Shown in pieces: positions 6,467 to 52,629 of a stretch of DNA of 64,000 nucleotides. The position numbers and the translations under genes were made by a program. This DNA comes from a virus (taxonomy: Duplodnaviria; Heunggongvirae; Uroviricota; Caudoviricetes). The DNA is taken from IMG/VR virus record IMGVR_UViG_3300028653_000011; one strand, 5' to 3'. Each line of letters opens with the position of its first letter. Position 1 is the first letter of the stretch. The notes beneath the pieces were generated by a model that had not been told where the DNA came from, ran no database searches, and saw only the letters and a program-made list of their open reading frames with translations.

Positions 6467-7735
6467 GTGGGAGGTGCGAGCGGGCATCTTCGACATTTGC
6501 ACGACAACCTCGACCTGACGTTCGGGGAGTTGAAGGATGTGTTGTCGTCGGCGGCCGATGGCAAGCTCGAGCGCACCAGTGAAAAACTCGACGGGATCAA
6601 CCTAGTCTTCACGTGGGCGGGTGATCAACTGAAAGTAGCCCGCTCGGGCGGTGACATCAAGAGCGGCGGCATGGACGCTGTAGGTCTGGCGACCAAGTTT
6701 CAGGGGCGCGGCAACCTGGCCGACGCCTTCAACGGTGCCTTCAAGGTGCTCCGCGACGCGGTGGGCTCGCTGAGCGACGCCGTCCGAGCCAAGGTCTTCA
6801 ACGACGGCCGCACCTGGTACTCGATTGAGGTCATCTACTCCAAGAATCCCAACGTCATCAACTATGACGCCAACTACGTTGTCTTCCACGCCAGTCCCGT
6901 CTTCCACGTCTCACGCGCCGGCGAGGTCAAGAAGCTCGACTCTGCTCCCGGCGTGGCCTTGTTGGAGAAGCACGTCGACAACATGCAGCGTGCCCTGACG
7001 CAGCGTAGTTGGCAGGTCAGGGGCCCGGCTCTGGTTCGCCTCAAGAAGCTGAGCGACGGCAACGCCGTCAAACGTGCCTTCACCATGATCGGTCAGGCAC
7101 AGTCGATCGCCGGAGTGGGTGACGATGATACCCTCGGCGATTACCTCGCGGCGCGGATGACTGATGAAGTCGCGGGGCTCGACCTGCCACCCAAGGTCGC
7201 CAAAGCGGTGACGGCTCGGGCGGTGGGCAACCCGGGCGCACCGTCGTTGCTCAACCTGAAGAAGCTCGTCTCGCCCGACCAATATGCCGCCGTCAATCAC
7301 TTTGTCAAGGCATCGCCGGGCCTGCTGAAGAAGTTCATTGAGCCCATCGAGCGTGCCGTCCATGAGTTTGCGATTGAGGCCCTGCGTGGCATGCACTCCA
7401 CGCTCATCGGCAACAACGACGCCGAGGTGCAGCGCCTGCGGGGTGAGGTCGCCCGGGCCGTCAAGGCGATTGAAGCCAGCGGCGACGCCACGGCGATGGA
7501 CGTGTTGCAGAAGCAGATGACGAAGTTGGGTAGCATCGAGAATGTCAGCAGCGCGATGGAGGGCGTTGTCTTCACGTGGAAGGGCAACTCATATAAGTTC
7601 ACGGGTGGGTTTGCGCCTGCCAACCAGATCCTCGGCCTGTTCAAGTACGGGCGCAAGGGCGTAAAGATCCCCGTTCAAGAGGCCTATTTAAGGCACGCGG
7701 TCGCTCGGTTGGTCGCCAATGGGAGACACAGATGA
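6467..7735 (+). CDS. hypothetical protein (possible nucleotidyltransferase/ligase-like motifs)
   Basis: 422 aa. N-terminal EKLDGINLVF (KxDGxN-like) and C-terminal EGVVFTWKG...KFTGG resemble ligase motifs I and IV/V, but the spacing is atypical. Confidence 0.5.
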   Translation: MGGASGHLRHLHDNLDLTFGELKDVLSSAADGKLERTSEKLDGINLVFTWAGDQLKVARSGGDIKSGGMDAVGLATKFQGRGNLADAFNGAFKVLRDAVGSLSDAVRAKVFNDGRTWYSIEVIYSKNPNVINYDANYVVFHASPVFHVSRAGEVKKLDSAPGVALLEKHVDNMQRALTQRSWQVRGPALVRLKKLSDGNAVKRAFTMIGQAQSIAGVGDDDTLGDYLAARMTDEVAGLDLPPKVAKAVTARAVGNPGAPSLLNLKKLVSPDQYAAVNHFVKASPGLLKKFIEPIERAVHEFAIEALRGMHSTLIGNNDAEVQRLRGEVARAVKAIEASGDATAMDVLQKQMTKLGSIENVSSAMEGVVFTWKGNSYKFTGGFAPANQILGLFKYGRKGVKIPVQEAYLRHAVARLVANGRHR

Positions 7736-10041: not shown

Positions 10042-10497
10042 ATGGACGACAAGAACAAGGTTCGCCGGAAGGCGACTTCATGTGGCGGTCTACCGTGGCG
10101 AGTTCACCTGGGTCGAGTGCAGGTGCTGTTAGTCAAGCAATTTTCACACAGTGACAACTGGGGCGTGCCTAAGGGTCACCTCAAACCCGGTGAATCGCTG
10201 GAGGACTGCGCACGGCGAGAAATTCGTGAGGAGACTGGCATCGACGTTGGGCTGACCGAGCGCCTGCCTGACATCACGACGGTGCACCGTGGTGAGGAAA
10301 AGACGGTGGTGCTGTGGCTAGCGCTGCCCACTGCCGACGTTGAACCCTATCACGACAACCCCGACAGTGAAGTCGCCGATGCGCGTTGGTTCAACATCGA
10401 TGCACTGCCCATGATTCACAACTACCAGCGCACCATTGTCAAACACGGCATCGAGGCGATCAAAGTTGATCTCAACAGCTACGTGCCATCGCCGTGA
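10042..10497 (+). CDS. NUDIX hydrolase
   Basis: Nudix box GHLKPGESLEDCARREIREETGI. Confidence 0.8.
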   Translation: MDDKNKVRRKATSCGGLPWRVHLGRVQVLLVKQFSHSDNWGVPKGHLKPGESLEDCARREIREETGIDVGLTERLPDITTVHRGEEKTVVLWLALPTADVEPYHDNPDSEVADARWFNIDALPMIHNYQRTIVKHGIEAIKVDLNSYVPSP

Positions 10498-12208: not shown

Positions 12209-12490
12209 ATGGCAAAGACAGCACCCGCAAAAGCAGTCGCAGAGATGATGCCCGACGAGATCACCGCCTTGCGCGCCGTGGTCAACGACTTCATGGGCCA
12301 AGTGAGTTCGATCGACAACGAGATTGAGACCCTGAAGGGGGATCGCAAAGAAGTCATCGAGTCCTTCAAAGACAAGCTCGATATGAAGACGTTGCAGACT
12401 GCGCTGAAGGTCATCAAGCTCCAGAACAGCATTGCGCACAAGGATGCCTATGACTTGTTCATGGAAGTCCTCGGCGATCCGGCCCAATGA
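12209..12490 (+). CDS. hypothetical protein
   Basis: TAGAGT -10-like hexamer 6 nt upstream. 93 aa. Confidence 0.45.
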   Translation: MAKTAPAKAVAEMMPDEITALRAVVNDFMGQVSSIDNEIETLKGDRKEVIESFKDKLDMKTLQTALKVIKLQNSIAHKDAYDLFMEVLGDPAQ

Positions 12491-12699
12491 ACCGCGGCAC
12501 CGCCTGCAATGACTGCATCAGGTGTGCAGAGATCAAGGTCGCCGCACGTGGGGTGCGCGCCACTCTTCTTGAACCTGAGTTGAATCGCATGTTCCTGTGT
12601 CCGACGTGTGGCAACAAGCGGTGTCCCAAGGCAACCTACCACGACAACAAGTGCACCGGCTCCAATGCGCCCGGACAGGAAGGCAGCGACTACAAATGA
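12487..12699 (+). CDS. small zinc-ribbon protein
   Basis: CNDCIRC ... CPTCGNKRC. ATGA-coupled on both sides. Confidence 0.45.
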   Translation: MNRGTACNDCIRCAEIKVAARGVRATLLEPELNRMFLCPTCGNKRCPKATYHDNKCTGSNAPGQEGSDYK

Positions 12700-14231
12700 G
12701 TGCCGATATTGAGTGGGATAAATCGGTGATCTTGAACGCTGACAATGAACATCTCCTTGCTTTGCCAGTCATGTCGTTCATCAAGGGATTGGTCGAGCGG
12801 TACGGCGCTAGCGTTGACACGTGTCTCGATGCCCGCAAGCACCGCAGCATCGTTGACTGCGACTTCGCTCGTTCACCCGAGGAGCTCGACTCATCATGGC
12901 GTGCGGCACCCCCACCTGCCGACCTCATCGATCGCCGCGTCGAGATCACCGGGCCGCCCACCCGCAAGGGCGTCATCAATGCTCTCAATTCGGGCGCTGA
13001 CGTCTTCATGGCCGACTTTGAGGACTCATGCTCACCGACGTGGGACAACCTGATCAGTGGTCAGGTCAATCTCTTCAATGCCGTTCGTCGCACCATTACC
13101 TACGACGATCCTACGACGGGCAAACACTACTCGCTCAATGACAAGCCAGCGGTGTTGATGGTCAGGCCCCGGGGCTGGCACCTCAAGGAGAAGCACGTCA
13201 GGCTCGATGGCAAGCCCGTGCCTGCGGCCCTGGTCGACTTCGGTCTCTATGTCTTCAACAATGCACACGAACTGTTGTCACGTGGGTCAGGCCCGTATCT
13301 GTACCTGCCCAAGATGGAGAGTCACCACGAGGCGAAGCTGTGGGACGATGTCTGTTCCTACGCAGAGCAGGTACTCAACCTGCCCATGGGCGCCATTCGC
13401 ACGACGTGCCTGATCGAGACGCTGCCTGCCGCCTTCTGTATGGACCGCATCATCTACGCCCTCCGCGACCGCATCGTGGGCCTCAACTGCGGGCGCTGGG
13501 ACTACATCTTCTCCTTCATCAAGAAGCGCCACGATGACCCGAGCGCGGTGTTACCCGATCGCTCGCTGTTGACGATGGACAAGGCATTCCTCAACGCCTA
13601 CGATGAGCTGTTGGTGCAGACGTGCCACAAGCGCGGCATCCACGCGATGGGCGGCATGGCGGCGCAGATCCCGATCAAGGGCAATGCCGAGGCCAATGAC
13701 GTCGCCATGGAGAAGGTACACACCGACAAGTTGCGTGAAGCAGCGATGGGCCACGACGGCACTTGGGTCGCCCACCCGGGTCTGATCCAGATCGCTCGTG
13801 AGGCCTTCAAGGACTGCGGGCCCAATCAGATCGATCGGCCACGCACCAATCGACCCATCACTCGCGACGAGCTGTTGTTGGTGCCGTCAGGTCCCTGCAC
13901 CGAGGAAGGCCTGCGCCACAACATCAGGGTTGGCATCCAATACCTCGAGGCGTGGTTGAGCGGCAATGGCTGCGTGCCCCTGTACAACCTGATGGAGGAC
14001 GCGGCGACGGCCGAGATCTCACGTGCCCAAATATGGCAGCAACTACACCACGGTGCGATCGTCGGCGGGCGCCCACTGACCTACGTCAGGTTGGCGGACA
14101 TCATCAGCCAAGAAACAATGCCACTGGTGGGCGCGCGGATCGACGATGCGATCAGGTTGTTCATGAAGGTTGCATGCGACCCGCACGAGTTCACCGACTT
14201 TCTGACGCTGCCCGCCTACGACATGCTGTAA
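12696..14231 (+). CDS. aceB: malate synthase A
   Basis: Collinear with E. coli AceB throughout (RRVEITGP, FMADFEDS, GLNCGRWDYIFS, MGGMAAQIP, GHDGTWVAHPGL, CVPLYNLMEDAATAEISR). ATG at 12696 overlaps the upstream stop. Confidence 0.9.
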   Translation: MSADIEWDKSVILNADNEHLLALPVMSFIKGLVERYGASVDTCLDARKHRSIVDCDFARSPEELDSSWRAAPPPADLIDRRVEITGPPTRKGVINALNSGADVFMADFEDSCSPTWDNLISGQVNLFNAVRRTITYDDPTTGKHYSLNDKPAVLMVRPRGWHLKEKHVRLDGKPVPAALVDFGLYVFNNAHELLSRGSGPYLYLPKMESHHEAKLWDDVCSYAEQVLNLPMGAIRTTCLIETLPAAFCMDRIIYALRDRIVGLNCGRWDYIFSFIKKRHDDPSAVLPDRSLLTMDKAFLNAYDELLVQTCHKRGIHAMGGMAAQIPIKGNAEANDVAMEKVHTDKLREAAMGHDGTWVAHPGLIQIAREAFKDCGPNQIDRPRTNRPITRDELLLVPSGPCTEEGLRHNIRVGIQYLEAWLSGNGCVPLYNLMEDAATAEISRAQIWQQLHHGAIVGGRPLTYVRLADIISQETMPLVGARIDDAIRLFMKVACDPHEFTDFLTLPAYDML

Positions 14232-14246
14232 ACAGAGAGGTGCGAC

Positions 14247-15629
14247 ATGGATGACATCAAACGACCCTACACTCCCGCTGACGTCAAGCGCCTGCAGGGC
14301 CGCACCCGAATCGTACACTCGCTGGCCGAGAATGGTGCCGGTCGATTACGTGCTATGATGGTGAACCAATCCGTGCGGGCGTTGGGAGCGCAGACTGGCA
14401 ACCAAGCGGTGCAGATGGTCAAGGCAGGATTGAAAGCCATATATGCGTCAGGTTGGCAAGTTGCCGCCGACGCCAACACGTCAGGCCAGACCTACCCAGA
14501 TCAGTCACTGTACCCCGTCGACAGCGTGCCCACCCTGGTCAGGCGCATCAACAATGCACTGCTCCGTGCCGAGCAGATCGATGCGATGGAAGAGGCAGAT
14601 GGCCAACGCAGCGAGAATCATCGTCACTGGTTAGCGCCCATCGTTGCAGATGCTGAGGCAGGCTTTGGCGGTCACCTCAACACCTATGAACTTGTCAAGG
14701 CGTTGATCGAGGCCGGTGCGGCAGGCATTCACCTCGAGGATCAGCTGTCGAGCGCGAAAAAATGCGGGCATTTAAATGGGAAAGTGCTCATCCCGACGTC
14801 TCAAGCGATCAACAACCTCGTCGCCGCCCGCCTCGCTGCCGACGTGCTCGAGGTGCCGACGGTCATCATTGCTCGCACCGATGCACTGAGTGCGCAATTG
14901 ATAACCAGTGATATTGACGAACGAGATCGCCAGTTCGTTGCACCAACTAGTCGCACTTCGGAAGGTTTCTACCACCTGACGGGCGATCCCATGCAGCGGA
15001 CGATCGCTCGTGGCCTCGCCTATGCGCCCTACGCCGACCTGCTGTGGTTCGAGACGTCAACGCCCGATTTGGCGCAAGCCAAGCAATTCGCTGAGGCGAT
15101 CCACGCACAGTTCCCGGGCAAGCAGTTGGCCTTCAATTGTTCGCCGTCGTTCAAGTGGCGCAAGCACCTGACGGACGATCAGATCGCCTCGTTTCAGGAT
15201 GACCTACACGCGATGGGTTATGTCTTCCTCTTTGTAACCCTCGCGGGTTGGCACGCCAATGCCAGCAGCGTCTTCGAACTGGCGCTCGATTATCACCAGC
15301 GTGGCATGGGTGCCTACGTCAAGTTGCAGGATCGGGAATTCACGCTCGAACAAGCGGGCTACACCGCCGTCAAGCACCAGCGCGAAGCCGGCACCTCATA
15401 CTTCGACGCGATCGTTAGTGTCATCACCGGCGGTACTTCGTCGACGTTAGCGATGAAGGGCTCGACTGAGGCCGAGCAGTTCTCTGAACATGCAACCCCG
15501 TACGGGGTAGGATTACCCTATGGCGAAGAAGTCGAAGAAGAAGCGGGAAAAGACGGTGGTGTGCACGGATGTCGGGCAAGCGAAGTTCGCGCCCCAGCAG
15601 ACGTACGCCCTGACGCTGACCCGGTTTGA
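14247..15629 (+). CDS. aceA: isocitrate lyase, with a ~45-aa C-terminal extension
   Basis: KKCGHLNGK catalytic motif, [22 protein letters not shown], ends ...GSTEAEQF like AceA. The frame then continues ~45 aa further and overlaps the next gene. Confidence 0.9.
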
Positions 15630-16038
15630 GGTCCTCCACCTACGCGACCTGTTTAGCATCACGTTGCCCACCGACGTCAAGCAGACGGTGAGCCAGGGAT
15701 TGGCCGCCGTCGAGGATCGAGAGATCGTCGAAGCCAAGCTGTGGCGCAAGGTCGCCACCTTGTGTCAAGCGGCGGCAGTGCCGACTGACGATGCGGCCCC
15801 TGACTTCGTCTGCGCGGCGTCGCAGGCACCCCCGGTCGGCGTCTTCAGGCTGGCGCACGATCCGCAGGAGGGTCAGGAGAATCAGTCACCAACCGGGAGC
15901 GTGTTGGATAACATCGTGACCGGTGATGAGAACGTTGATGATCCGGGTGACGACGACCCGTTCATGGGCGCCACGCCGTCATGGCCCACCGGTGAACCGA
16001 TCGGACAACGTACACCAAAGAAGGCGAAGCAGCCGTGA
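15520..16038 (+). CDS. hypothetical protein (Lys-rich N-terminus, acidic C-terminus)
   Basis: [12 protein letters not shown]-terminus. Overlaps the aceA tail in another frame. Confidence 0.45.
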
Positions 16039-21808: not shown

Positions 21809-22395
21809 GGACGTCAGCTGCAGGCATACAATTTATAACGCATGAAGAAGGCGTCGTGCTCCACACTTACAATGATGTCGGTGGGAAAGCAACGATCGGA
21901 ATTGGCCACCTGCTCGGCCCGGGTGAGTCGTATCCCAACGGCATCACCCTTGCACAGGCACAGGCCATGCTCGCGAACGACCTTGCCCGGTTCGAGGCCG
22001 CCATCAGCGGCGGCGTCAAGGTGACGATCACCCAACACATGTTCGACGCGCTCGCCAGCTTTACGTACAACCTGGGCACCGGCGCACTCGCCTCCTCTAC
22101 ACTCCTCAAGCTCCTCAACAAGGGTGACTTCGCCGGTGCGGCCGCCCAATTTCCGGCCTGGGACAAGGTCGACGGCGTGCCCAATGCCGAGATCCTCGGC
22201 CGGCGCAAGCGTGAAGCTGCACTGTTCTTGACCCCCGATGCGGCCCACGTCGCTCCCCCGCCCGCGCCGCCTGTTCCCACCCCTCCCGTGCCGCCGAGTA
22301 TTCCTGCGGTCCCCGTGGCGCCTCCACCCGCGCCCACCAATGCATTCGCCGACTTCTTTGCGATGATCTTGAGACTGTTCACCGGAGGCAAGTGA
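21805..22395 (+). CDS. T4-type lysozyme (GH24 endolysin) with Pro-rich linker and C-terminal amphipathic helix
   Basis: EEG...D...TIGIGHLL catalytic region collinear with T4 lysozyme. C-terminus APPPAPPVPTPPVPP...AFADFFAMILRLFTGGK. Confidence 0.85.
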   Translation: MRTSAAGIQFITHEEGVVLHTYNDVGGKATIGIGHLLGPGESYPNGITLAQAQAMLANDLARFEAAISGGVKVTITQHMFDALASFTYNLGTGALASSTLLKLLNKGDFAGAAAQFPAWDKVDGVPNAEILGRRKREAALFLTPDAAHVAPPPAPPVPTPPVPPSIPAVPVAPPPAPTNAFADFFAMILRLFTGGK

Positions 22396-23255
22396 TGACG
22401 CAGACATACCGCAAGACGTGGCGACCTGATAGCACCCAACCACTGCCCGCAGGCCAAGCCGCATTCCACGACCTGCCACTCGGGGCGGCTAACCTCGCCT
22501 CGGTGCTGGCGGCGGGCGCTGCTGTGCCCAATCAGATCGTGGAACAGGGTGGCATCCTCGACCTCAGGCCCCTGTGCCCACCAATTGACAACCAGTACCA
22601 AGTGTCCGACTGCGTTGCCGATGCCACGTGTTCGGCGTTGGAGTTCTGTCAGATCCGCAATGGCCTGCCCTTCGTCAAGCTGTCACGCCTGTTCATGTAC
22701 TACAACGCTCGATTGCAGACGCAGGACACCGCCAACGATGCAGGCACCTACATCAGGTTGGCCTTTAGCACTCTCGCGTCGCTGGGCACCTGTCCTGAGT
22801 CCACGTGGGCCTATGACACCTCAATGATCTTCACCCGCCCGTCGTGGGAGAGCTACCGCGAGGCGTATCCCAACAAGGTCACCAACTTCTACTCGATCAG
22901 CCAGCTGTTGATCGCGGCGAACAACATCATCAATCCCAATTCGTTGACGGCCTCCATCAAGCAAGCACTGCAGGCGATCCACCCGGTCGTCTTCGGCATG
23001 ACCGTTGATGAAGGTTACGACAACACGGGTCGCGACGGCATGGTGGCGATGCCGGCATCGAAGCGCATCAGTCCCGGTGGCCACGCACAGATGATCTGTG
23101 GCTACAACGACAACCTACAGCGATGGATCGTCAAGAACAGCTGGGGCACTGGTTGGGGCGACGGGGGATACTGCTACGTGCCCTATGCCTACTTGGGTGC
23201 GTCCGGCGTCGACGACATCTGGGTGCCGACGCTGGCACCGGGCCAGCGGGCGTGA
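22392..23255 (+). CDS. papain-like cysteine peptidase (C1 family)
   Basis: GGHAQMICGY (His motif) and NSWGTGWGDGGYCYV (Asn-Ser-Trp motif), plus an upstream QxxxxDC region. Confidence 0.85.
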   Translation: MMTQTYRKTWRPDSTQPLPAGQAAFHDLPLGAANLASVLAAGAAVPNQIVEQGGILDLRPLCPPIDNQYQVSDCVADATCSALEFCQIRNGLPFVKLSRLFMYYNARLQTQDTANDAGTYIRLAFSTLASLGTCPESTWAYDTSMIFTRPSWESYREAYPNKVTNFYSISQLLIAANNIINPNSLTASIKQALQAIHPVVFGMTVDEGYDNTGRDGMVAMPASKRISPGGHAQMICGYNDNLQRWIVKNSWGTGWGDGGYCYVPYAYLGASGVDDIWVPTLAPGQRA

Positions 23256-23588: not shown

Positions 23589-24089
23589 ATGGGCATCAAG
23601 ATCTTGCGACACTACACTAGCAGTGCACGGCCTCTCATACAGATCGCGGCGTGGGCAGCCGTCGCCGGCACGGTGACGCTGGCACTGGCCACGTGCACGT
23701 CGTGTCACAGCACCGGGGTGCTCATCGTGCCCACCAACCCGCCGACCATCACCGATCAATCGGCATGTGCACAGGCGTGTGGCAACCTCGTGGCACTGGG
23801 TTGCGTGGAAGGCACGCCCATCGACACTCACCAGACGTGTAAGGTCGACGCCGACTGCTTGGGAGTGACAGGCGTCCACGATGAATATCAGACGTGCTCC
23901 GTCGCCTTCACCTGCATGGTCACCTGCGTCAACTTCTGCACCGCGACGGAGAACACCGGCGTGTGGCTCGACCCCACGTGTGCGGCCAAGATCACTTCGT
24001 GTGACCAACTGAGCACCTGTCCGGGCCCACAGACGGCGGGCACCAGCTGCACCGGCCCGGGCTGCAAGGTGGCGCCGAGTGGCAAGTGA
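23589..24089 (+). CDS. Cys-rich lipoprotein
   Basis: Signal peptide plus lipobox (LALATC). More than 20 Cys in 166 aa. Confidence 0.55.
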   Translation: MGIKILRHYTSSARPLIQIAAWAAVAGTVTLALATCTSCHSTGVLIVPTNPPTITDQSACAQACGNLVALGCVEGTPIDTHQTCKVDADCLGVTGVHDEYQTCSVAFTCMVTCVNFCTATENTGVWLDPTCAAKITSCDQLSTCPGPQTAGTSCTGPGCKVAPSGK

Positions 24090-24651
24090 CCGTGACCTGT
24101 TGCGGCAATTGATCCGCGAAGTTCTCACCGACTTCAACACCAAGACGCTCGGCAAGGACGGCGTTGCGGGCAACGTCTTCAACACGGGCCTGACGACGGG
24201 CGGTGCGGGTGTGTTGAAGCAGAACGGCAACATCCTCGATGATGAGGATGCCGACGAACAGCACGACGAACAGAGCACACAGCGGGCGGCGTGCTGTTTA
24301 ATCGTGGGCCACGATGGGACAGTGCTGTGCGTGTCACGGAAGGATGATCCCACCGCTTGGGGCATGCCGGGAGGGAAGGTTGATCCCGGCGAAGACGACG
24401 AGACTGCTGCGGGTCGAGAGTTGACGGAAGAAGTGGGCCTGACAGCGACGGCGCTGCACCCGGTCTTCACTATGCGCGACAGGCAGGGGTTCACAACGAC
24501 AACATTTGCCTGTGAAGTTGACGGCCAGATCAACACCAGCGAATCGGGCGTCATCAGGTGGGTGCACCCGAGCCTGTTGTGCAATGATGCCCACTCGCCG
24601 TTCGCTGCGTATAATCGGGCCCTGTTTGCCGAGCTGGGAGTGAAAACTTGA
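24079..24651 (+). CDS. NUDIX hydrolase with leader-family N-terminus
   Basis: Nudix box GGKVDPGEDDETAAGRELTEEVGL. N-terminal MASDRDLLRQLIREVL. Confidence 0.8.
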   Translation: MASDRDLLRQLIREVLTDFNTKTLGKDGVAGNVFNTGLTTGGAGVLKQNGNILDDEDADEQHDEQSTQRAACCLIVGHDGTVLCVSRKDDPTAWGMPGGKVDPGEDDETAAGRELTEEVGLTATALHPVFTMRDRQGFTTTTFACEVDGQINTSESGVIRWVHPSLLCNDAHSPFAAYNRALFAELGVKT

Positions 24652-27370: not shown

Positions 27371-27723
27371 TCCTCTCACTCGTCGCTGTCGTGGCGGCAT
27401 CGGCATTCGGTTCTGTCGTCATCATCACCAAGTCGGCGCTGGCATTCGCCAACGTCTTCGACAAGCGCGAGCGTGAAGACGACAGTGGCGTGAAGCTGTA
27501 CCCATTCGAGCACGTGGTCAATGGAAAAACTCGCTGTGTAGTGTGTGGTTACTACGCTAGTAATGCCACTAGTGGCAATCCTGCATTGGGACCAGGGGCA
27601 CCGCGTGCGTGCGAGGATGATACTTGCAGTGCTCGGTGGGATGACATCGCTCACCTTCACATGACGTGTCGTTCGTGCCGCAGCGCGTGGTTGATGAGGA
27701 CGGCACCGGCTGACCTCACGTGA
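27367..27723 (+). CDS. membrane-anchored Cys-rich protein
   Basis: N-terminal TM (ILSLVAVVAASAFGSVVII), CVVCGYY...CRSCRSAW. ATGA-coupled. Confidence 0.45.
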   Translation: MILSLVAVVAASAFGSVVIITKSALAFANVFDKREREDDSGVKLYPFEHVVNGKTRCVVCGYYASNATSGNPALGPGAPRACEDDTCSARWDDIAHLHMTCRSCRSAWLMRTAPADLT

Positions 27724-28139
27724 GGATACCACCCGTTTCACCCTACGGCCTCATTCAGGAGACGCTGTGGCCCGACGAATGGTTGATCCTCGTCACCGGC
27801 ACCATGCTCAATTGCACCACGCGCAAGCAGGTTGAACGGGTGCTGCCCGACTTTCGTTGTCGGTGGCCCACCCCTCAGGTCTTTGTCACCGCCTCATACG
27901 ACGACGTCTTTGAGTTGATCAAGCCACTGGGTTTCGGCAACAGGCGCACGGGCAACCTGTTGAAGATGACGCGTGCCTACCTGATGACCGACTGGCACCA
28001 CGCCCGTGAACTGCCCGGCGTCGGCGAGTACGGTGCACGCAGTTGGGAGATCTTCTGCTTGGGCGTGTTGGGCACGACGCCACCGAAGGATCATGCCTTG
28101 CTACAGTATTGGGACTGGGCGGTGACCTTACCGAGCTGA
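27720..28139 (+). CDS. HhH-GPD DNA glycosylase, MBD4 glycosylase-domain-like
   Basis: WLILVTGTMLNCTTRKQV ... LPGVGEYGARSWEIFC ... PKDHALLQYWDW parallels the MBD4 catalytic domain (LLIATIFLNRT ... LHGIGKYGNDSYRIFC ... PEDHKLNKYHDW). Confidence 0.6.
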   Translation: MRIPPVSPYGLIQETLWPDEWLILVTGTMLNCTTRKQVERVLPDFRCRWPTPQVFVTASYDDVFELIKPLGFGNRRTGNLLKMTRAYLMTDWHHARELPGVGEYGARSWEIFCLGVLGTTPPKDHALLQYWDWAVTLPS

Positions 28140-29136: not shown

Positions 29137-29991
29137 ATGCCAGAGGGACCTGAACTTCGAAAAAGTCGCGATGACCTACAATTCTTGGTCGGTCGCTACA
29201 TCACCCGCGTTGAGGCGGTGGGCGGACGCTATGCGAAGGTGCCGCCCGTTGGTCTCAACGACTTCACTGGCTCAAGCAAATGTGCCGAGTGCCTCTACCT
29301 GAAGGAGTACGGTCGCATCGAGGAAGTCGAGGTCAAGGGCAAGTTCATGTGGTGGAGCATTCGAGCGGCGTGGTCGCTGTGGTGCACCTACGGCATGACG
29401 GGCAGGTGGAGCACCACCCGAGACGATAAGCACTGTGCTGTGGTGCTGACCCACCGTGGTGCTGCAGGCGACGAGGCCTGCGTCTACTTCAATGATCCAC
29501 GGCACTTCGGCACCCTGAAGTTCGTCTATGACCGTGACGGCGACAAGACGCAGGCCAAGCTCGACGCGCTGGGTCCCGACATGTTGGGCTCACCGCCGGC
29601 CCCTGAACAATTCATCGCCCGGCTGGGCAAGAAACCCAATCGCACCCTGGCCGAGGCGCTGATGGACCAATCTGTCGTCTCGGGAGTGGGCAATTACGTC
29701 AAGGCCGAGGGCCTCTACATGGCCGCACTATCGCCACACCGCACCGTCGCCGAGTGTTCGGTCGCCGAACTGATGCACTTGGGCACGCGGTTGACCCAGG
29801 TCATGATGGAATCGTACACGTCTGGTGGCGCGACGATCAGCACCTACCGCACCGTCGACGGCACCAAAGGTGGGGCGCAGCGACGCTTTGCGGTGTATGG
29901 TAATATGACGGACCCGATGGGTCACCCGGTGATCAAAGAGGCGACCAAGGACGGGCGCACTACCCACTGGTGCCCGGCGATCCAAAAGTGA
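29137..29991 (+). CDS. nei: Nei/Fpg-family DNA glycosylase (endonuclease VIII-like, degenerate zinc finger)
   Basis: N-terminal MPEGPELRK, H2TH motif LMDQSVVSGVGNYVKAEGLYMAALSP. C-terminus retains WCP but lacks the second Cys pair. Confidence 0.85.
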   Translation: MPEGPELRKSRDDLQFLVGRYITRVEAVGGRYAKVPPVGLNDFTGSSKCAECLYLKEYGRIEEVEVKGKFMWWSIRAAWSLWCTYGMTGRWSTTRDDKHCAVVLTHRGAAGDEACVYFNDPRHFGTLKFVYDRDGDKTQAKLDALGPDMLGSPPAPEQFIARLGKKPNRTLAEALMDQSVVSGVGNYVKAEGLYMAALSPHRTVAECSVAELMHLGTRLTQVMMESYTSGGATISTYRTVDGTKGGAQRRFAVYGNMTDPMGHPVIKEATKDGRTTHWCPAIQK

Positions 29992-31528: not shown

Positions 31529-32491
31529 TTGTCCATGTTGAACCGTAGTTTTACGATCGTGGCACTGTTGGGCACGTTGGCCTTCAATGCAGGCTGTTCG
31601 AGCCAAGACGTGCCGCCTGCACACAAGGGGCGCATGTTCGAGAAGACGGGCATGTTGAAGTTCTACACCGGAGGCAAGGGGTTTGATGGGCCAGTGTTGG
31701 GCCCGGGCACCTATTTCACCGGCGTGTATCCCGAAGTCAGGATCGTCGATTGCTCGACGCGGACGTTCAAGGAACCCATGACGTCGATGACGAAGGACGG
31801 CGTCCAATTCGCGCTCGATGTCTACATCACCGTCAGTGCCAACTGCGACAATGATCAGGCCACCGAGATCCTGCTCAATAAGCTGGCCCCCACGGGCAAA
31901 GTCGACGCACCGAACCCGGGTGCCGGTGCAGGTAACGGCGTTCCCGACGAGAAAGATCCCGTTGAGACTGATGCTGACCGTGCCATCACTTCGAGGCAGG
32001 TGTACAGCACCTTCGTGCGCCCCGCGTTGGGCGAAGCGGTGCGGCAGGCGATCGCCAGCTACGACGCCAACGACATCAACTCCCACCGGGAAGAACTGTT
32101 CGGCCGCATCAAGACGAAGCTCGACTCTGACCTGAAGGGTTCACCATCGCTGGTCACCGTCGTCAACTTCAACCTGTCCAACTTCAAGCTGCCCGATGAG
32201 ATGGCCAACGCCGCCGCCGACCGAGCGACACAACAGGTGCTCCGCGACAAGTCGGTCGCTGAACAGGAACGCATCAAGGTTGAGACGGCGACGGCACTGT
32301 TGCAGGTCGACAAGACCGCCGCCGAGGCACAAGCTGAAGCACGTAAGATCGATGTGGTCGGTGCTGCGCTGCACCGCAATCCCGAGTACTACGTCCGCGA
32401 CGTCTATTACTACGCCGCGGAGCACGGAGGCAGCGTGATGCTACCGACGAATCCCAACGTCATCCTGTCGATGACGCCCGGACACAAGTAG
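31529..32491 (+). CDS. SPFH/band-7 (prohibitin/HflC-like) domain lipoprotein
   Basis: Signal plus lipobox (FNAGC). SPFH-like core and a C-terminal Ala/Glu/Gln-rich coiled region. Confidence 0.6.
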   Translation: MSMLNRSFTIVALLGTLAFNAGCSSQDVPPAHKGRMFEKTGMLKFYTGGKGFDGPVLGPGTYFTGVYPEVRIVDCSTRTFKEPMTSMTKDGVQFALDVYITVSANCDNDQATEILLNKLAPTGKVDAPNPGAGAGNGVPDEKDPVETDADRAITSRQVYSTFVRPALGEAVRQAIASYDANDINSHREELFGRIKTKLDSDLKGSPSLVTVVNFNLSNFKLPDEMANAAADRATQQVLRDKSVAEQERIKVETATALLQVDKTAAEAQAEARKIDVVGAALHRNPEYYVRDVYYYAAEHGGSVMLPTNPNVILSMTPGHK

Positions 32492-33806: not shown

Positions 33807-34571
33807 ATGTGCACCCTCATCGTCCTCAGTGAAGCGATCGATGGTTACCCACTCGTCGTCGCCGCCAATCGCGATGAGCACTATGATCGGCCTTCGCTGC
33901 CGCCTGCAATCACCGGTGATGTCATCTGCCCGCGTGATCTCCACAAGGGTGGCACGTGGCTGGGCGTGGCTCGTGGTGGCTGGTTCGCCGGGTTGACCAA
34001 CCAAGTCGACGCCCACCAACCGCACCTGCTGGCGTCACGAGGCCACGTCGTTGATGCTTGCCTCAAGGCCGGCAATCACCTGGCCGTGGCCCAATACCTG
34101 CAGGGGCTTGATCGTGGCGTCTACAACAACTTCAACCTGGTCTTTGGCAGGCCCGGCGCCATTTTTTTGTGCCGTGTCTGGGGGCTGCACGCGCTGGAGA
34201 TGCTCGTGGTGCCTGCAGGAACCAGCGTCTTCACCAATGATTGTTGGGACGGGCAGTTTCAGGCCAAGGCCGAGCGCGCCCGCGAATTGACCACCCACCT
34301 CGCCGGCGCAGTACCGATCCACGACGTCAAGAACGCGTTGTTCGCAGTGCTGTCAGACCACCAACACGGTGACGATCCTCGTCAATCGATGTGCATCCAT
34401 GCCGACGGTTGGGGCACTCGTAGCACCTCGATCATCACAGTGTCCAATGAGGGGGCCGTGGAGTACTACTATTCAGATGGTGCACCGTGTAGGAGTCCCG
34501 GTGTTGCATGTGTGGGCGTTCTATCGATTGATGACGAACTCATCACTGACGCAGACCTGAAGAAACCCTGA
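33807..34571 (+). CDS. NRDE/TANGO2-family protein
   Basis: N-terminal MCTLIVL (Cys2) and AANRDE motif. Length ~250 aa typical of the family. Confidence 0.8.
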   Translation: MCTLIVLSEAIDGYPLVVAANRDEHYDRPSLPPAITGDVICPRDLHKGGTWLGVARGGWFAGLTNQVDAHQPHLLASRGHVVDACLKAGNHLAVAQYLQGLDRGVYNNFNLVFGRPGAIFLCRVWGLHALEMLVVPAGTSVFTNDCWDGQFQAKAERARELTTHLAGAVPIHDVKNALFAVLSDHQHGDDPRQSMCIHADGWGTRSTSIITVSNEGAVEYYYSDGAPCRSPGVACVGVLSIDDELITDADLKKP

Positions 34572-37464: not shown

Positions 37465-39126
37465 ATGATTGAGGCCATGAACGACAATACCACGCACGTC
37501 ATCTTTGCCGCGGACGCTCGTAAGCAACTGTGGGCCGGCATGAAGATTGCTGCCGATGCCGTCACCACGACGTTGGGCCCTAAAGGTCGCACCGTCATCA
37601 TCCAGCGCGCTAACCAATCCCCTCTGGTGACGAAGGACGGGATCACCGTCGCCAAGTCGATCAAGTTGAAAGATCCCGTCAAGCGGATGGGCGCCGAACT
37701 GATCCTCGAAGCTGCCAATCAGACCAATGAGGTCGCCGGTGACGGCACCACGACGGCCACGTGCCTGACGGCCGCGCTCGTCGCCGAAGGTTTGAAGCTG
37801 GTCGAAGGCGGCTTTAGCCCACTCGAGCTGTGCAAGGGCATTGAGGCAGCGACCGGGTTGGTGCTCGCCGCCCTCAAACAACAGGCGGTGCAGGTGTCAA
37901 CCAGTGCTGCGGTCGCCCAAGTCGGTACCATCAGTGCCAACGGTGATGCACAGATCGGCAAGTTGATCGCCGATGCCATGGAACACGTGGGCCGCGACGG
38001 CATCATCACCGTCGAGGACGCCAAGGGCATGGCCACGTCAATGTCAATCGCTGATGGCATGCAGTTTGAACGCGGCTACATTAGCCCCTACTTCGTCACC
38101 GATGCAGAACGGATGCGGGCGACGTACGATGATGCCTTTGTCCTCGTCACTGACAAGAAGATCAGCAGCCTCAAGGAACTGATCCCACTGCTCGAGCGAG
38201 TGGTGCGGTTACAGAAGGGCCTGCTGATCATCGCTGAAGATGTCGACGGTGATGCACTGACGGGCCTCGTCCTCAACCGCGTCAAGTCAGGCCTGCCCGT
38301 TGTCGCCATCAAGGCACCCGGTTACGGCCTGCACCGACAAGAGCTACTGCACGACATCTGCGTCATGACGGGTGCAACCCTCGTCTCCAGTGCCAACGGC
38401 CTGACACTCGACAAGGTCACTGACGCCAACTTGGGACGTGTCAAGCGCTTCAACACCGACGCGAAGTCGACGACGCTCGTCGGGACGGGTGCTCAAAAGA
38501 CGCACATTGACACCCACGTGGTTGAACTGCGCAAGCAGCTCGAGGACATCACTCTGGGGCAGGATGAGGTGACCAAGCTGAAGGTTCGCATTGCCAAGTT
38601 GGCCTCGGGCGTCGCCGTCATCCGCGTCGGCGGCGCGACCGAAGTCGAGATGACAGAGCGGCGCTTCCGCGTCGAGGATGCATTGAACGCGACGAAAGCG
38701 GCCGTCGAAGAGGGCATTGTGCCCGGTGGCGGCATGGCCTTCTACCACGCCGTCCATGCAGTGAAGAGTACGACGGTCGATGAAGCCACCGGCGCCCACG
38801 ATGAGCAGGCAGGCATGGGTGTCGTCTATCGGGCGTGCCTCGCGCCGCTCAAGCGCATCATTGAGAATGCAGGTGCCAGCTCTCCCGTGGTGCTGGCGGA
38901 ATTGGCGCGCAGGGATGCCGCGGCACCGCTCATCAATGACAACATGGGTTACAACGCGGCGACGGGTGAATACGTCGACCTCGTCACTGCCGGCGTCGTC
39001 GATCCTGTCAAGGTGGCACGGACTGCACTGAAGAACGCAGCATCAGTTGCTGTCACCTTCCTCAGCCTCGACGCCGTGGTGTATGATGAACAGGTCACCA
39101 AGGAGCAACACGCTGATGAACAGTGA
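37465..39126 (+). CDS. groL: chaperonin GroEL (Hsp60), lacking C-terminal GGM repeats
   Basis: Collinear with E. coli GroEL (AGDGTTTAT, VGTISANGD, GYISPYF, LLIIAEDVDGDAL, AAVEEGIVPGGG). C-terminus ends ...KEQHADEQ. Confidence 0.95.
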   Translation: MIEAMNDNTTHVIFAADARKQLWAGMKIAADAVTTTLGPKGRTVIIQRANQSPLVTKDGITVAKSIKLKDPVKRMGAELILEAANQTNEVAGDGTTTATCLTAALVAEGLKLVEGGFSPLELCKGIEAATGLVLAALKQQAVQVSTSAAVAQVGTISANGDAQIGKLIADAMEHVGRDGIITVEDAKGMATSMSIADGMQFERGYISPYFVTDAERMRATYDDAFVLVTDKKISSLKELIPLLERVVRLQKGLLIIAEDVDGDALTGLVLNRVKSGLPVVAIKAPGYGLHRQELLHDICVMTGATLVSSANGLTLDKVTDANLGRVKRFNTDAKSTTLVGTGAQKTHIDTHVVELRKQLEDITLGQDEVTKLKVRIAKLASGVAVIRVGGATEVEMTERRFRVEDALNATKAAVEEGIVPGGGMAFYHAVHAVKSTTVDEATGAHDEQAGMGVVYRACLAPLKRIIENAGASSPVVLAELARRDAAAPLINDNMGYNAATGEYVDLVTAGVVDPVKVARTALKNAASVAVTFLSLDAVVYDEQVTKEQHADEQ

Positions 39127-42912: not shown

Positions 42913-43179
42913 ATGAGGCTCACCCTACGTCGTCTACGACGATTGATACGAGAATTCGGTGTTGACGACACACTACGGAATGATGCTGGCTTCTTCATGG
43001 CAGGCGGCCTGAGTTCAGCGCACCGTGACCGTGAGAATACGTTGATGGATCCACCGCCCGGGTTGGGCAGTGACGCAGAAGAGACAGATGACGCAGAGAA
43101 GGATGGAGACATTGAAGACAAATCACAGTTCGCAGTCAGGGTTGACGACAAACGAGGCGGGCCGGGACGATCGGCTTGA
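42913..43179 (+). CDS. leader-family small protein
   Basis: MRLTLRRLRRLIREFG N-terminus, acidic C-terminus. Confidence 0.45.
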   Translation: MRLTLRRLRRLIREFGVDDTLRNDAGFFMAGGLSSAHRDRENTLMDPPPGLGSDAEETDDAEKDGDIEDKSQFAVRVDDKRGGPGRSA

Positions 43180-43180
43180 A

Positions 43181-43375
43181 ATGCAGGGTAAGGTCGAAGA
43201 GTGCATGCCGGGCACGCTGTTCCGGGTGCGCTGCGACAACGGGCACCTCGTCCTGTGTACCTTGAGCGGCAAGTTGAGGCAGAACCGCATCAGAATACTG
43301 GCCGGTGACGCGGTGACGTGCGAGTGCAGTCCGTATGATGTCTCGAGGGGTCGCATCACCTGGAGACGTACGTAA
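43181..43375 (+). CDS. infA: translation initiation factor IF-1 (bacterial type, S1-like fold)
   Basis: MQGKVEECMPGTLFRVRCDNGHLVLCTLSGKLRQNRIRILAGDAVTCECSPYDVSRGRITWR is collinear with E. coli IF1. An in-frame N-terminal extension to 43070 is possible. Confidence 0.85.
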   Translation: MQGKVEECMPGTLFRVRCDNGHLVLCTLSGKLRQNRIRILAGDAVTCECSPYDVSRGRITWRRT

Positions 43376-45266: not shown

Positions 45267-46052
45267 TCAATACGTGTAGACGTCATCGCCGATCGGGAAC
45301 AGTTTACGTTCAAAGCGTGACTCGCCACTGTGAACGGCACGCGCCTTGACGCTGACCAACCTCTCATCGGGCAGCACATAGGCCCACAGCTCGCCGCCAA
45401 AGCAACAACCACCGTCGAGGCCCACCGCTTTCGGGGTGATCAATGGCCTATTGAGGACGCTGTGACCGAAGAAGATGCGCTCAGGCCCGTCCCAAAAGTG
45501 GTGCCAAAAGCGCCAACCTTCGTTGGGAGGAATGCGACTCGGCCACATCGACTTGTCGTTGATCCTCATCTGACCATCGGCACCAAAGTCGTAGGGACAG
45601 ATGCACTGTATGTGGGTCAAGTGACGCACGGACTGGCGTTCGATGGGCACCCCTGGGAAGACGCCGGCATGGACGGCGACGGCGTTGAACTCTGGTAGAC
45701 GCAGGTACAGTGGCAACCGCCTGAAGTAGTCGTAGTGCTCGGGACGGAGCTGTGACCGGGTGACGACGTGAGACGGGGGTAGCTGACTCGGCAGCTTACC
45801 AGTGCGTGCCAGTACGTCTTCATGATCGAGGTGCCGGTGTTCATGGTTGCCCAGGATGCAGGCGGGTTTGCCTTGTCGCGCTTCGATCCGCATCGCCAGG
45901 TCAACGCACTTGCCGCTCTCGGGACCTCGGTCGACGGTATCACCGAGGAAGATGACCCAGTCTTCAGGACGCGCCTTGCACTTGTCGAGCAGTTCTTGTT
46001 GTTCTGCATAACAACCTTGAACATCACCCACTAGAATTGTGCGCATTGCCAT
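45267..46052 (-). CDS. metallophosphoesterase (PPP family; ApaH / lambda-phosphatase-like)
   Basis: GDVQGC, LGDTVDRGP, GNHE motifs. Confidence 0.8.
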   Translation of the reverse strand: MAMRTILVGDVQGCYAEQQELLDKCKARPEDWVIFLGDTVDRGPESGKCVDLAMRIEARQGKPACILGNHEHRHLDHEDVLARTGKLPSQLPPSHVVTRSQLRPEHYDYFRRLPLYLRLPEFNAVAVHAGVFPGVPIERQSVRHLTHIQCICPYDFGADGQMRINDKSMWPSRIPPNEGWRFWHHFWDGPERIFFGHSVLNRPLITPKAVGLDGGCCFGGELWAYVLPDERLVSVKARAVHSGESRFERKLFPIGDDVYTY

Positions 46053-46894
46053 TTGAACCCATATGCTGTTTCTTTTTCACCAGTCAAACACGCCTTAATT
46101 GTATCTTTATGGGCACCAATACCCAGCTCTTTTAGAGCTAACACAGCGTGTTTAATTGATGAAAAGGTGGCGACGATATTGCCATTTAATGATAATTGAT
46201 CAACTGCAATCCATGATGATTTCGTTTTCACTTTTGGAACATGAACGTCATCACCCGCCACTCTCCAATAAAAACCATGACTCAACATTACATGACCTAT
46301 TTTAACAGGAATCACTCGTTGGGTGGCTTTTGTTAATCCTTGTTCACTTAACCATATTTGTACTGCGCTTCGAGAATCGTGTAATTCTAAAAACTGTCCA
46401 TCAGTTGACCAACGTTCAATGCGTACTTTTTGTTGATTAGCACCTTGAGATCTATTTTGAATTTCTTCATCAGTGTACGGTGCTTTACGCCAACCAACGT
46501 GACTTCTATATTTATGTGCTTGACGAATTTTCTCATTTGTTTCAGGCGTTGGTTTCTTATGCGTTTGTGGCTTTCTCGTATAGAAGTCTTGTCCACCTAC
46601 AGTAAGATTGTAACCATATCCACCCATTCTGATGTTAGTATTTAATTTTGCGATCCAATAACGTTCACGATCATTGAGTTGTTCATCAGAACATTCTTCA
46701 ATGACTTCATATTTGAAATTTTCAAATCCATGTTTGATTAACGCACCCAAAATTGGTCTGCCCAATTTATTGTACTTTTTATGATGCGTTGCACCGTATT
46801 TGTAATTGCGCCAATGTATTTCTGGATCGACTTTTGATTGACCAACATACAGCTTATCATTGAGAATATTAAGAATCTTATAAATGTGACTCAT
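46031..46894 (-). CDS. GIY-YIG homing endonuclease
   Basis: IYKILNILNDKLYVGQS ... ERYWIAKLNT ... YN. The basic C-terminal half is a probable DNA-binding region. Confidence 0.85.
   Translation of the reverse strand: MSHIYKILNILNDKLYVGQSKVDPEIHWRNYKYGATHHKKYNKLGRPILGALIKHGFENFKYEVIEECSDEQLNDRERYWIAKLNTNIRMGGYGYNLTVGGQDFYTRKPQTHKKPTPETNEKIRQAHKYRSHVGWRKAPYTDEEIQNRSQGANQQKVRIERWSTDGQFLELHDSRSAVQIWLSEQGLTKATQRVIPVKIGHVMLSHGFYWRVAGDDVHVPKVKTKSSWIAVDQLSLNGNIVATFSSIKHAVLALKELGIGAHKDTIKACLTGEKETAYGFKWQCAQF
46031..46894 (-). mobile_element. free-standing homing-endonuclease gene in a low-GC island
   Basis: Marked drop in GC (~40% by eye) confined to this ORF, against ~60% flanks. Confidence 0.6.
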
Positions 46895-46911
46895 TCTACC
46901 TTTAATATACT

Positions 46912-47202
46912 CTAGTTGACGTCATACTTCGATGCAGGCCAAGCCACGTCCTTGGCGACATCGATGCCCCGTGACGAATTGTCGGCGTAGGTAGGATCGA
47001 AGATCAGCACCTTGAGTGACTTAGGTAGTTCGGGACGTGCACTCACCGCGTACGTCGCTGCGATGGCCACGGGAGGTAGTTGCGGTGGCGCTTCGGGCGA
47101 TGCATCCGCGAAATTACCGATGAATTGGGCCAACTTCGGAAAGTCAGCGAGGTACAACCAGACCTGAAGCTTGTCGATGATTCGTCTTAGCATGGAATCC
47201 AT
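46912..47202 (-). CDS. hypothetical protein
   Basis: 96-aa ORF. Confidence 0.4.
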   Translation of the reverse strand: MDSMLRRIIDKLQVWLYLADFPKLAQFIGNFADASPEAPPQLPPVAIAATYAVSARPELPKSLKVLIFDPTYADNSSRGIDVAKDVAWPASKYDVN

Positions 47203-47325
47203 TGTACTCTGGCACTGCCCACAGTATTATCTGACCATGAGTGATGCAGTCGTCTATGTTGGCCTACCCGTGTTGCTGGGGTTGGCGATCCTCATCGACA
47301 GGATCCGCGACGGCAAGAGGAAACG

Positions 47326-47580
47326 ATGAAACGACCCAAGACGATTGAGGAACGCACGGCACTGGCGTATACGTGGTGGGACTTGTCGAACGCGCTGTGG
47401 CTCGCCTTCGCGTGGACGGTATTGGTCGGCTTGTTGCTAGTCTGCGTGGCGTTCGGCGTGGGTCTGACATTGGGCGAACGTACCGGGCGCTACAACCAAC
47501 GGTGCCTCGCCGCCGGGGGTGAAGTGCTAGCCACTGGCGCCTGTGGTCACATCACCTATGTCAAGGTTGGCACGCCGTGA
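47326..47580 (+). CDS. small membrane protein
   Basis: TM WLAFAWTVLVGLLLVCVAFGVGL. 84 aa. Confidence 0.4.
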   Translation: MKRPKTIEERTALAYTWWDLSNALWLAFAWTVLVGLLLVCVAFGVGLTLGERTGRYNQRCLAAGGEVLATGACGHITYVKVGTP

Positions 47581-47807
47581 AGATGTCGGAGCTGCGCCGC
47601 CTCAAGGCCGAAGTCGATGAGGTCATCGTGCTTCGCGACAACCTGCAGGCAGTGCAGGCCCGTTGCACCGAACTGCTCAATGCCTACCGCACCATGCGCT
47701 ACGTACTCGAGGAGTGCGACAGGTGGTTCAGTTGCGGTACCGTCGGTCGGAGCGGTGCTATCCTGCATGACAAAGTCAAGCAAGCACTATCGGAGCCCAA
47801 TCGATGA
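47577..47807 (+). CDS. small hypothetical protein
   Basis: GTGA-coupled. 76 aa. Confidence 0.4.
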   Translation: MKMSELRRLKAEVDEVIVLRDNLQAVQARCTELLNAYRTMRYVLEECDRWFSCGTVGRSGAILHDKVKQALSEPNR

Positions 47808-47926
47808 TCGTCGTCATCGCCGCGATGCTGTCAGGCATTCCCCTCATCACCTTTTGCATCCTCATCGTGGTCGACATGATCGATCAGTGGCGCGCAAAGA
47901 AACAACGTGCGCGCAAGGCTAAGTGA
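47804..47926 (+). CDS. 40-aa TM micro-protein
   Basis: ATGA overlap. MIVVIAAMLSGIPLITFCILIVVDMIDQWRAKKQRARKAK. Confidence 0.3.
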   Translation: MIVVIAAMLSGIPLITFCILIVVDMIDQWRAKKQRARKAK

Positions 47927-48067
47927 GTGGGTCAAGGCGCTGGCGCTGCGCCTGAGGTGCAGCTTGGGCTGGCACGACTACGAACTGTTATTCGATCTCG
48001 ACACCGACAGTGATGATGCTTTCGGTGAACTGTGGCACTGCAAACACTGTGAAAAGGAAGCACCAAC

Positions 48068-48313
48068 GTGGCCATTATGAAGACGCTGTGGCACTGGTTT
48101 CACCCCGTCAATCGAGCGCCGGTCGCGCTGTTCGCGGGTGGTGAAGTATTCACCAACTTCGTGGCGATCGGCGCCTACACCAAGCACCCGTGGTTGACAG
48201 GCACCTGCCTCGTCGGTGCAGTGCTGTGCCTAGGCGCCTGCGTAATGATGTGCATCAAGGCAATGAAGGCACTGTACTCACAACCCTACGTCGAAGAACT
48301 GGAGACGCCGTGA
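48068..48313 (+). CDS. small membrane protein (holin-like size and topology)
   Basis: Two TM segments. 81 aa. Confidence 0.4.
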   Translation: MAIMKTLWHWFHPVNRAPVALFAGGEVFTNFVAIGAYTKHPWLTGTCLVGAVLCLGACVMMCIKAMKALYSQPYVEELETP

Positions 48314-48414: not shown

Positions 48415-48415
48415 C

Positions 48416-48922: not shown

Positions 48923-48937
48923 GACATCAGAAAGTAC

Positions 48938-49609: not shown

Positions 49610-49633
49610 TCATCACCCACGTGCACACGGTGT

Positions 49634-52623: not shown

Positions 52624-52629
52624 CGCGCA

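Follow-up and report, generated by a model that had tools for sequence, protein, structure and literature searches.

Linked malate synthase and isocitrate lyase genes on a 359-kb circular element that is probably a huge phage

Introduction

Why should a phage carry both enzymes of the glyoxylate shunt, and are the genes truly its own? The question is raised by a 64,000-nucleotide (nt) stretch of DNA, called the window below, which corresponds to positions 86,001-150,000 of the ENA contig k141_2233850 (359,321 bp) and contains a malate synthase (MS) gene, aceB, followed by an isocitrate lyase (ICL) gene, aceA. Our analysis leads us to view the window as part of a circular, uncultivated huge phage of ~359.2 kb that encodes the linked aceB-aceA pair as auxiliary metabolic genes, a reading to which we assign a probability of about 75%. 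As far as sequence can tell, both shunt-specific enzymes are intact and adjacent, in a virus-like genome.

Results

aceB and aceA are predicted to encode complete enzymes

A sequence-only reading of the window had proposed a full-length aceB at 12696-14231 (+ strand); the list of open reading frames (ORFs) has exactly these coordinates, for a product of 511 amino acids (aa). In a Pfam search, the protein matched MS_TIM-barrel (8.8e-103) and MS_C (1.1e-30). It scored 670.9 bits on the NCBIfam model malate_syn_A (TIGR01344, EC 2.3.3.9), compared to a curated equivalog cut-off of 594.5, with a match spanning profile positions 6-510 of 511, consistent with its being a malate synthase A (MSA). The Pfam domain MS_N was undetected, though residues 15-511 align with residues 16-528 of the Bacillus anthracis MSA (3CUX, 1.3e-160); residues 56-511 also align with the Escherichia coli MSA (3CUZ, 6.2e-154). 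Counted along the 3CUZ alignment, R157, E241, D269 and D435 correspond to R166, E250, D278 and D447 of the E. coli enzyme, of which we take Arg166 and Asp447 to be the catalytic acid and base, respectively, and Glu250 and Asp278 to be Mg2+ ligands. The motifs RRVEITGP (at residue 80) and DGTWVAHP (at residue 354) are present, as had been reported.

The aceB ATG at 12696, also the start in the gene calls of public assemblies, overlaps the stop codon of an upstream ORF as ATGA (junction ...TACAAATGAGTGCC). A longer version beginning at GTG 12597, the longest possible, was rejected, since homologues give it no support. The upstream ORF (12487-12699, +), which is in the ORF list and is called as a gene in public assemblies, encodes a Cys-rich protein of 70 aa (CNDCIRC...CPTCGNKRC) with no Pfam match.

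The aceA gene likewise lies exactly where it had been placed (14247-15629, +), and is full length at 460 aa. Its product matched the Pfam ICL family (1.2e-101) and exceeded the cut-offs of two isocitrate lyase models, NF011645 (NCBIfam, EC 4.1.3.1; 647.6 bits vs. 562) and TIGR01346 (529.6 vs. 275.9). We also considered a methylisocitrate lyase identity and discarded it: the prpB model gave only 96.3 (cut-off 354.4) and the KKCGH motif is present. The best PDB match, 6LRP (1.9e-163), covers residues 4-412, and the Pfam, NF011645 and 6LRP matches, together with the motifs and an alignment of homologues (alignment A1), delimit a catalytic core of residues 1-412 (14247-15482, +). The KKCGH motif that had been noted occupies residues 171-175 and fits the signature K-[KR]-C-G-H-[LMQR] as KKCGHL (171-176), including the catalytic Cys. 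In alignment A1, KKCGH, NCSPSF and one further motif are unchanged in all 20 homologues, as are SGW 68-70, D85, D135/E137, E164/D165, R210/D212, E269, N297/S299/S301 and T331. Inactivating substitutions, which the sequence-only reading had named as a possible objection, were found at none of the catalytic residues checked in MS and ICL.

The two genes are on the same strand, each with a Shine-Dalgarno-like site, and are separated by a spacer of just 15 nt (14232-14246, +; sequence TAAACAGAGAGGTGCGACATG, Shine-Dalgarno-like GAGAGGTG). A promoter and terminator scan found no promoter-like or terminator-like site between them. The GC content at third codon positions (GC3) and the codon adaptation index (CAI) are 0.79 and 0.72 for aceB, which resembles its neighbours, and 0.69 and 0.65 for the ICL core (window means 0.75 and 0.69). 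Along with overall GC, these values fall within the range of neighbouring genes, and phage-type genes lie on both flanks. Since the codon usage of MS and ICL is like that of their neighbours, neither gene appears to be a recent arrival.

The window belongs to a circular element of ~359 kb

Besides the ENA contig, two JGI contigs of 359,340 and 359,342 bp represent the same element with other start points and orientation. The first, Ga0265319_1000002, has its start at window position 36,759 and its end at 36,887; save for the first four bases, the ~125 nt at the start are the same as the ~125 nt at the end. The terminal repeat and the differing start points show that the element is circular, or circularly permuted, with a size of ~359.2 kb. 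With ~359.3-kb contigs in three assemblies and three rotations, it can be considered a complete genome above the huge-phage threshold (≥200 kb). The exact ICL protein was found on at least 24 contigs (ENA, JGI and Logan), ten of which are longer than 200 kb. The GC content of the window is uniform at ~0.59, save for a dip at 46-48 kb, and the element represents a GC-rich ~359-kb lineage, probably from soil. No tRNA gene was found in the window.

Gene content was read over 84 kb, i.e. the window and 10 kb on each side, with PHROG and Pfam scans of ~90 window ORFs, and bears out the earlier description of the surroundings of aceBA as phage-like and rich in ORFans. Phage-type genes include an endolysin (phrog_7, 4e-50), several homing endonucleases, a NinI-like phosphatase, a DNA-binding protein (phrog_624) and a 5'-3' exonuclease (phrog_107). 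The window also encodes a phrog_7371 protein, for which tblastn found 216 phage records, mostly of large actinophages. Thymidylate synthase, thymidine kinase, dCMP deaminase and a CCA-adding-type nucleotidyltransferase are encoded upstream of the window. ORFans of 60-100 aa form dense arrays on alternating strands at 47000-64000 and in the 10 kb beyond (L035, 20.8 kb, where one of 51 called genes has a Pfam match).

In the 84 kb, we saw neither ribosomal or other cellular core genes nor families concerned with plasmid replication, partition or transfer. A 25-kb part of the window had no megablast match among 50,697 phage records, and hence no close deposited relative. Scanning 185,579 species-representative bacterial and archaeal genomes (GTDB) with MS gave no protein above 60% identity, and therefore the locus is not a known chromosome region. 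The possibility that aceBA sit in an ordinary bacterial chromosome, which the sequence-only reading had raised against itself, fits poorly with a circular, ORFan-dense ~359-kb element carrying phage-type genes. We conclude, on this indirect evidence, that the element is very probably a huge (jumbo) phage. A giant eukaryotic virus was rejected, as the Shine-Dalgarno-like sites, the ATGA overlaps and the gene content point to a virus of prokaryotes.

Related phages suggest that ICL came first and MS later

The ICLs closest to that of the window are 64-71% identical and belong with it to a clade of 30 sequences (42 of 50 neighbour-joining bootstraps). Two large relatives, L037 (ENA k133_3844997, 357,674 bp) and L038 (NODE_27, 324,521 bp), have a gene order like that of the window: CN-hydrolase, pterin dehydratase, ORFans, NUDIX, ORFans, ICL, EamA-like, 5'-3' exonuclease, lysozyme and C1 peptidase. 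In both, ICL occupies the same slot, without MS. L037 also has a rubrerythrin and a Thg1-like gene near ICL.

In two further relatives, L039 (a 63.6-kb scaffold, "HuN_forest") and L040, MS lies directly upstream of ICL in this same slot. The window MS and its three closest MS relatives form a clade (40/40 bootstraps), distinct from bacterial MSA (best match Polyangiaceae, ~59%) and from marine viral MS. Since syntenic relatives have ICL only, and the MS proteins are monophyletic, ICL would have come first and MS later. The simplest history is that ICL was ancestral in this phage family and that a single insertion placed MS directly upstream of it in one sublineage; the complete MS-ICL pair is a lineage-specific add-on.

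A proposed bypass of the decarboxylating steps

What might the pair do during infection? Phage ICL would split isocitrate into succinate and glyoxylate and, by competing with isocitrate dehydrogenase, would divert isocitrate from the two CO2-releasing steps of the tricarboxylic acid (TCA) cycle, whatever the host's own regulation of this branch point. Phage MS would then condense glyoxylate with acetyl-CoA to give malate, making the bypass independent of the host enzyme and avoiding a build-up of glyoxylate. Carbon would be conserved and C4 acids replenished for biosynthesis, while production of NADH and reactive oxygen species (ROS) might fall. We propose these steps because they follow from the established biochemistry of the shunt, and infer from them that the phage shunt could reroute host carbon.

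Several observations weigh against the view that the element is a huge phage using aceBA in this way. The literature search found no expression or activity data for an ICL or MS encoded by any phage. Since the majority of relatives have ICL but no MS, the function under selection may differ from a two-step shunt. The nearest bacterial homologues, at 59-66% identity, disagree as to donor or host: ICL (~66%, Thermoleophilia/Gaiellaceae) points to Actinomycetota and MS (~59%, Polyangiaceae) to Myxococcota. Lastly, the Pfam and PHROG scans found no capsid, portal, terminase or tail families in the 84 kb, and the contig was not found in the IMG/VR collection searched.

The alternative that best survives is that ICL alone has been selected, for redox or ROS control through a lower NADH-yielding TCA flux, for supply of succinate or glyoxylate, or for methylisocitrate cleavage, MS being a later add-on that merely detoxifies glyoxylate. 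It accords with the syntenic 358- and 325-kb genomes of L037 and L038, which lack MS, and with the Huge Phage Genome Collection, in which 7,295 genomes of at least 200 kb contain 98 ICL but just 22 MS genes (bioRxiv 10.1101/2025.02.27.640493). ICL also lies among genes for oxidative damage: two NUDIX proteins, an HhH-GPD glycosylase and an Fpg/Nei glycosylase in the window (10042-10497, 24079-24651, 27720-28139 and 29137-29991), a superoxide dismutase upstream, and the rubrerythrin of L037. The methylisocitrate variant, however, is at odds with the low prpB score (96 vs. a cut-off of 354) and the KKCGH signature; a phage with ICL only could still run the shunt with the MS of its host; and MS is here intact, ameliorated and tightly linked to ICL. 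The ICL-only relatives and the oxidative-damage neighbours are the reasons why we regard a benefit coming primarily from ICL as possible, albeit unlikely.

A bolder, joint version of this idea is that ICL is a conserved core accessory gene in a family of soil phages of 325-360 kb not described before, with a phage-specific role distinct from canonical acetate assimilation (one candidate being redox or ROS control along with superoxide dismutase, NUDIX, Fpg and rubrerythrin), and that the conserved and unusually long 60-110-nt overlap of ICL with the gene downstream, described below, is no accident but a device for programmed translational coupling. We consider it doubtful that both parts hold.

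Could the element instead belong to a soil bacterium, as a megaplasmid or another type of giant extrachromosomal DNA, with aceBA serving ordinary host metabolism? Circularity suits a plasmid as well as a phage, and both the lack of virion and packaging genes in the 84 kb and the absence of the contig from the IMG/VR set searched would favour this idea. Against it, replication, partition and conjugation families are absent among the Pfam and PHROG matches; the endolysin, homing endonucleases, phage-restricted PHROGs, nucleotide salvage genes and arrays of tiny ORFans are jumbo-phage-like; and, according to the huge-phage catalogue, huge phages associated with soil and plants can carry ICL and MS. 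A plasmid origin is therefore improbable in our view, and a huge phage with its own aceBA is the reading we retain. We give practically no credence to an assembly chimera or to bacterial contamination joined to phage DNA, even though metagenome assemblies can be chimeric and some aceBA matches in the phage collection are plainly bacterial contigs (e.g. Salmonella records), as the identical ICL and its neighbours recur on those 24 or more contigs from different assemblers, aceBA match their flanks in GC content and codon usage, and their synteny is common to relatives.

The C-terminal tail of ICL is best seen as the shadow of an overlapping gene

The sequence-only reading had drawn attention to an unusual acidic C-terminal extension of ~45 aa on ICL. 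The extension is real, but it is the product of an out-of-frame overlap rather than a special domain. The canonical ICL ending ...STExxQF, here ...GSTEAEQF, is not the C-terminus, as the ORF runs on for another 48 codons (15483-15629, +, ending ...DADPV), reading through into the ribosome-binding site (RBS) and 5' coding region of the next gene. This gene (15520-16038, +), supported by the ORF list, homologues and GC3, begins within the ICL ORF, whose final 110 nt it shares in a different frame, and encodes a small basic protein of 172 aa with a Lys-rich N-terminus and no Pfam match.

Several lines of evidence indicate which of the two frames is under selection. In the tail region, GC3 is 0.41 in the ICL frame vs. 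0.83 in the +1 frame, compared to a coding mean of 0.75 (standard deviation 0.045), and the same disparity between ICL and overlapping frames is seen in L037 (0.41 vs. 0.81), L038 (0.40 vs. 0.87) and L039 (0.52 vs. 0.83). The 15520-16038 product shares 45% identity with its equivalents in L037 and L038 (alignment A3), and this similarity extends into the overlapped part, where the stretch T-[YF]-[AS]-L-[TR]-L-[TN]-[RK]-F-E-[LV]-[LV]-H-L-R-D-L-F is conserved. At the DNA level, the tail motif VGSxHG is GAGGTAGGATCnGAnCATGG, that is, the RBS and ATG of the downstream gene, and the acidic EEVEEE is AAG AAG TCG AAG AAG AAG (KKSKKK) shifted by one base. The ICL stop codon TGA sits within TTT-GAG (Phe-Glu) of the downstream KFE motif; in L038 this Phe is encoded by TTC and the ICL frame continues, giving EGPVQR, the shadow of LHLRDLFS. 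In L039, the equivalent of 15520-16038 seems to have been lost, with only its RBS and ATG left.

Our first view, based on the motifs in alignment A1, was that the tail is a clade-specific functional extension; the frame-specific GC3 and the DNA-level analysis rule against it. More generally, one could imagine a module selected at the protein level, for instance a docking peptide, a lid with a regulatory role or a signal for targeting or packaging. In the Mycobacterium tuberculosis ICL1 structures, the canonical C-terminus is close to the active site, and numerous sequences of the ICL clade have tails with the recurring motifs F-[TS]-E-H...V-G-S-x-H-G, D-V-x-P-x-A-D-x-V and E-G-P-V-Q-H, both of which count in favour of a functional tail. 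Each of these motifs, however, maps to the downstream gene's RBS (GAGGTAGGATC), ATG (CATGG) or conserved KKRKTYSLRLTKFELLHLRDLF. The GC3 bias in four genomes (0.40-0.52 in the ICL frame vs. 0.81-0.87 in the overlapping one) and the out-of-frame origin of EEVEEE also speak against selection on the tail, as do its variable length within the clade (0-91 aa, the nearest tree neighbour, P0013, being tailless) and its predicted disorder (AlphaFold (AF2) confidence score, pLDDT, ~32). A functional tail is thus very unlikely, and the most plausible view is that the 110-nt out-of-frame overlap has created a disordered appendage that is not under selection. As the ICL frame has no earlier stop codon, translation presumably extends through the tail. 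The case carries a caution: what looks like a conserved "extension" of a phage protein may be the frame shadow of an overlapping gene, and GC at third codon positions provides a quick means to discriminate such shadows from real extensions.

Other genes of the element

Three genes of the window, for GroEL (37465-39126, +; phrog_5725, 5.9e-146), an IF-1 homologue (43088-43375, +; Pfam eIF-1a, 2.1e-23) and a methionine aminopeptidase (51865-52623, -; Peptidase_M24, 6.4e-47), are of the translation and folding type reported for huge phages. The endolysin gene (21856-22395, +) is abutted by one for a papain-like C1 peptidase (22395-23255, +), a pair that is conserved in L038 and L006/L007. An SPFH/Band-7 protein (31529-32491, +) and a TANGO2-family protein (33807-34571, +; 2.9e-29) are both unusual for a phage.

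An ORFan of 422 aa (6467-7735, +), conserved within the phage family, had three distant tblastn matches at no more than 29% identity (27-29%), to Microcystis phage Mel-JY01, where the annotation is cytidylyltransferase-like, and to two uncultured phages of 460-480 kb; it had no match in the IMG/VR scan. The Fe/Mn superoxide dismutase gene lies directly upstream of the window (L033, 6509-7237), and a pyrimidine-dimer glycosylase was noted among the small window ORFs. Matches to phrog_15528, annotated as a "portal protein", were dismissed, as they correspond to the two NUDIX proteins. The sole low-GC stretch of the window (46000-48000, GC 0.485) holds a GIY-YIG homing endonuclease gene (46031-46894, -), which suggests a recently arrived mobile element.

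Discussion

At the genome level, the window provides a clean case, apparently complete, of a phage that encodes both enzymes of the glyoxylate shunt. The order of acquisition can be read from the existence of relatives with MS and others lacking it, and the stepwise gain of ICL and then MS in a defined phage family is a notable aspect of this locus. The pair is a good candidate for testing a phage-encoded shunt biochemically or genetically for the first time, as the literature searched yielded no test of this kind. The data suggest that some huge phages, probably of soil, may shift the split of acetyl-CoA carbon between CO2 and biomass.

Virus-borne aceBA are already documented, and the novelty of the present case is modest in this respect. 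Both genes were described from Pacific Ocean viromes as early as 2013, and TARA_ERS478052_N000008, a complete marine viral genome of 179 kb that has T4-like structural genes, contains an aceBA operon (Nishimura et al. 2017, PMC5332604). The latter resembles the window in being from a circularly assembled large phage with the aceB-then-aceA order. Our IMG/VR scan found 23 viral contigs with MS, adjoined by ICL in most; the order is aceB-aceA in the marine contigs L016 and L018-L020 and reversed in L010/L011, and the flanks of the four contigs sampled (L009, L011, L014 and L019) include genes for phage DNA polymerase, UvsX, DnaB and ribonucleotide reductase. The marine viral versions differ from those of the window in GC content (0.36-0.44 vs. 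0.59), are only 49-57% (MS) and 59-64% (ICL) identical to them, fall outside both the MS and ICL clades of the window and have no ICL tail. The marine and window pairs are of independent acquisition.

Among deposited phages, the only bona fide ICL homologue in the 50,697 records is CDS0055 of phage C48C1 (Kyanoviridae, GenBank OQ984149; L001 7833-9074), with 54% identity over 92% of the query. In this T4-like phage of 156 kb (GC 0.44), the ICL is annotated as hypothetical and has no adjacent MS. The same records contain no MS, save in mislabelled bacterial contigs.

Glyoxylate-shunt genes are also found in metagenome-assembled genomes (MAGs) of giant viruses (nucleocytoplasmic large DNA viruses, NCLDV), where they were read as a means of reprogramming host central carbon metabolism (Moniruzzaman et al. 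2020, PMC7136201), and we recovered six such GVMAG contigs with MS (L023-L026, L028 and L030). These are viruses of eukaryotes with a GC content of 0.24-0.47 and MS proteins 40-48% identical to that of the window, whereas the window has a bacterial-type organisation, with Shine-Dalgarno-like sites, ATGA overlaps, IF-1 and GroEL.

The closest parallel among huge phages is in the Huge Phage Genome Collection, where ICL and MS are adjacent in 20 of the 22 MS-bearing phages and MS is restricted to samples of marine, soil and plant-related origin (bioRxiv 10.1101/2025.02.27.640493). The phage family of the window shares with this collection the greater frequency of ICL than MS; synteny, order of acquisition and the ICL C-terminus, which are not analysed in that report, are the points that the present analysis addresses.

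Finally, the pair can be compared to the bacterial aceBAK operon of E. coli and Salmonella, with which it shares the aceB-aceA order, the tight linkage (a 15-nt spacer in the window) and the enzyme subfamilies, MSA and a short ICL1-type ICL. The Pfam matches of the window and its 10-kb flanks include no AceK family, so that aceK does not follow aceA as it does in aceBAK, and no iclR-type regulator was found in the 84 kb examined. The window pair is flanked by phage-type ORFans, small ones downstream, and not by metabolic genes, and its ICL frame, unlike that of aceBAK, runs on into the next gene.

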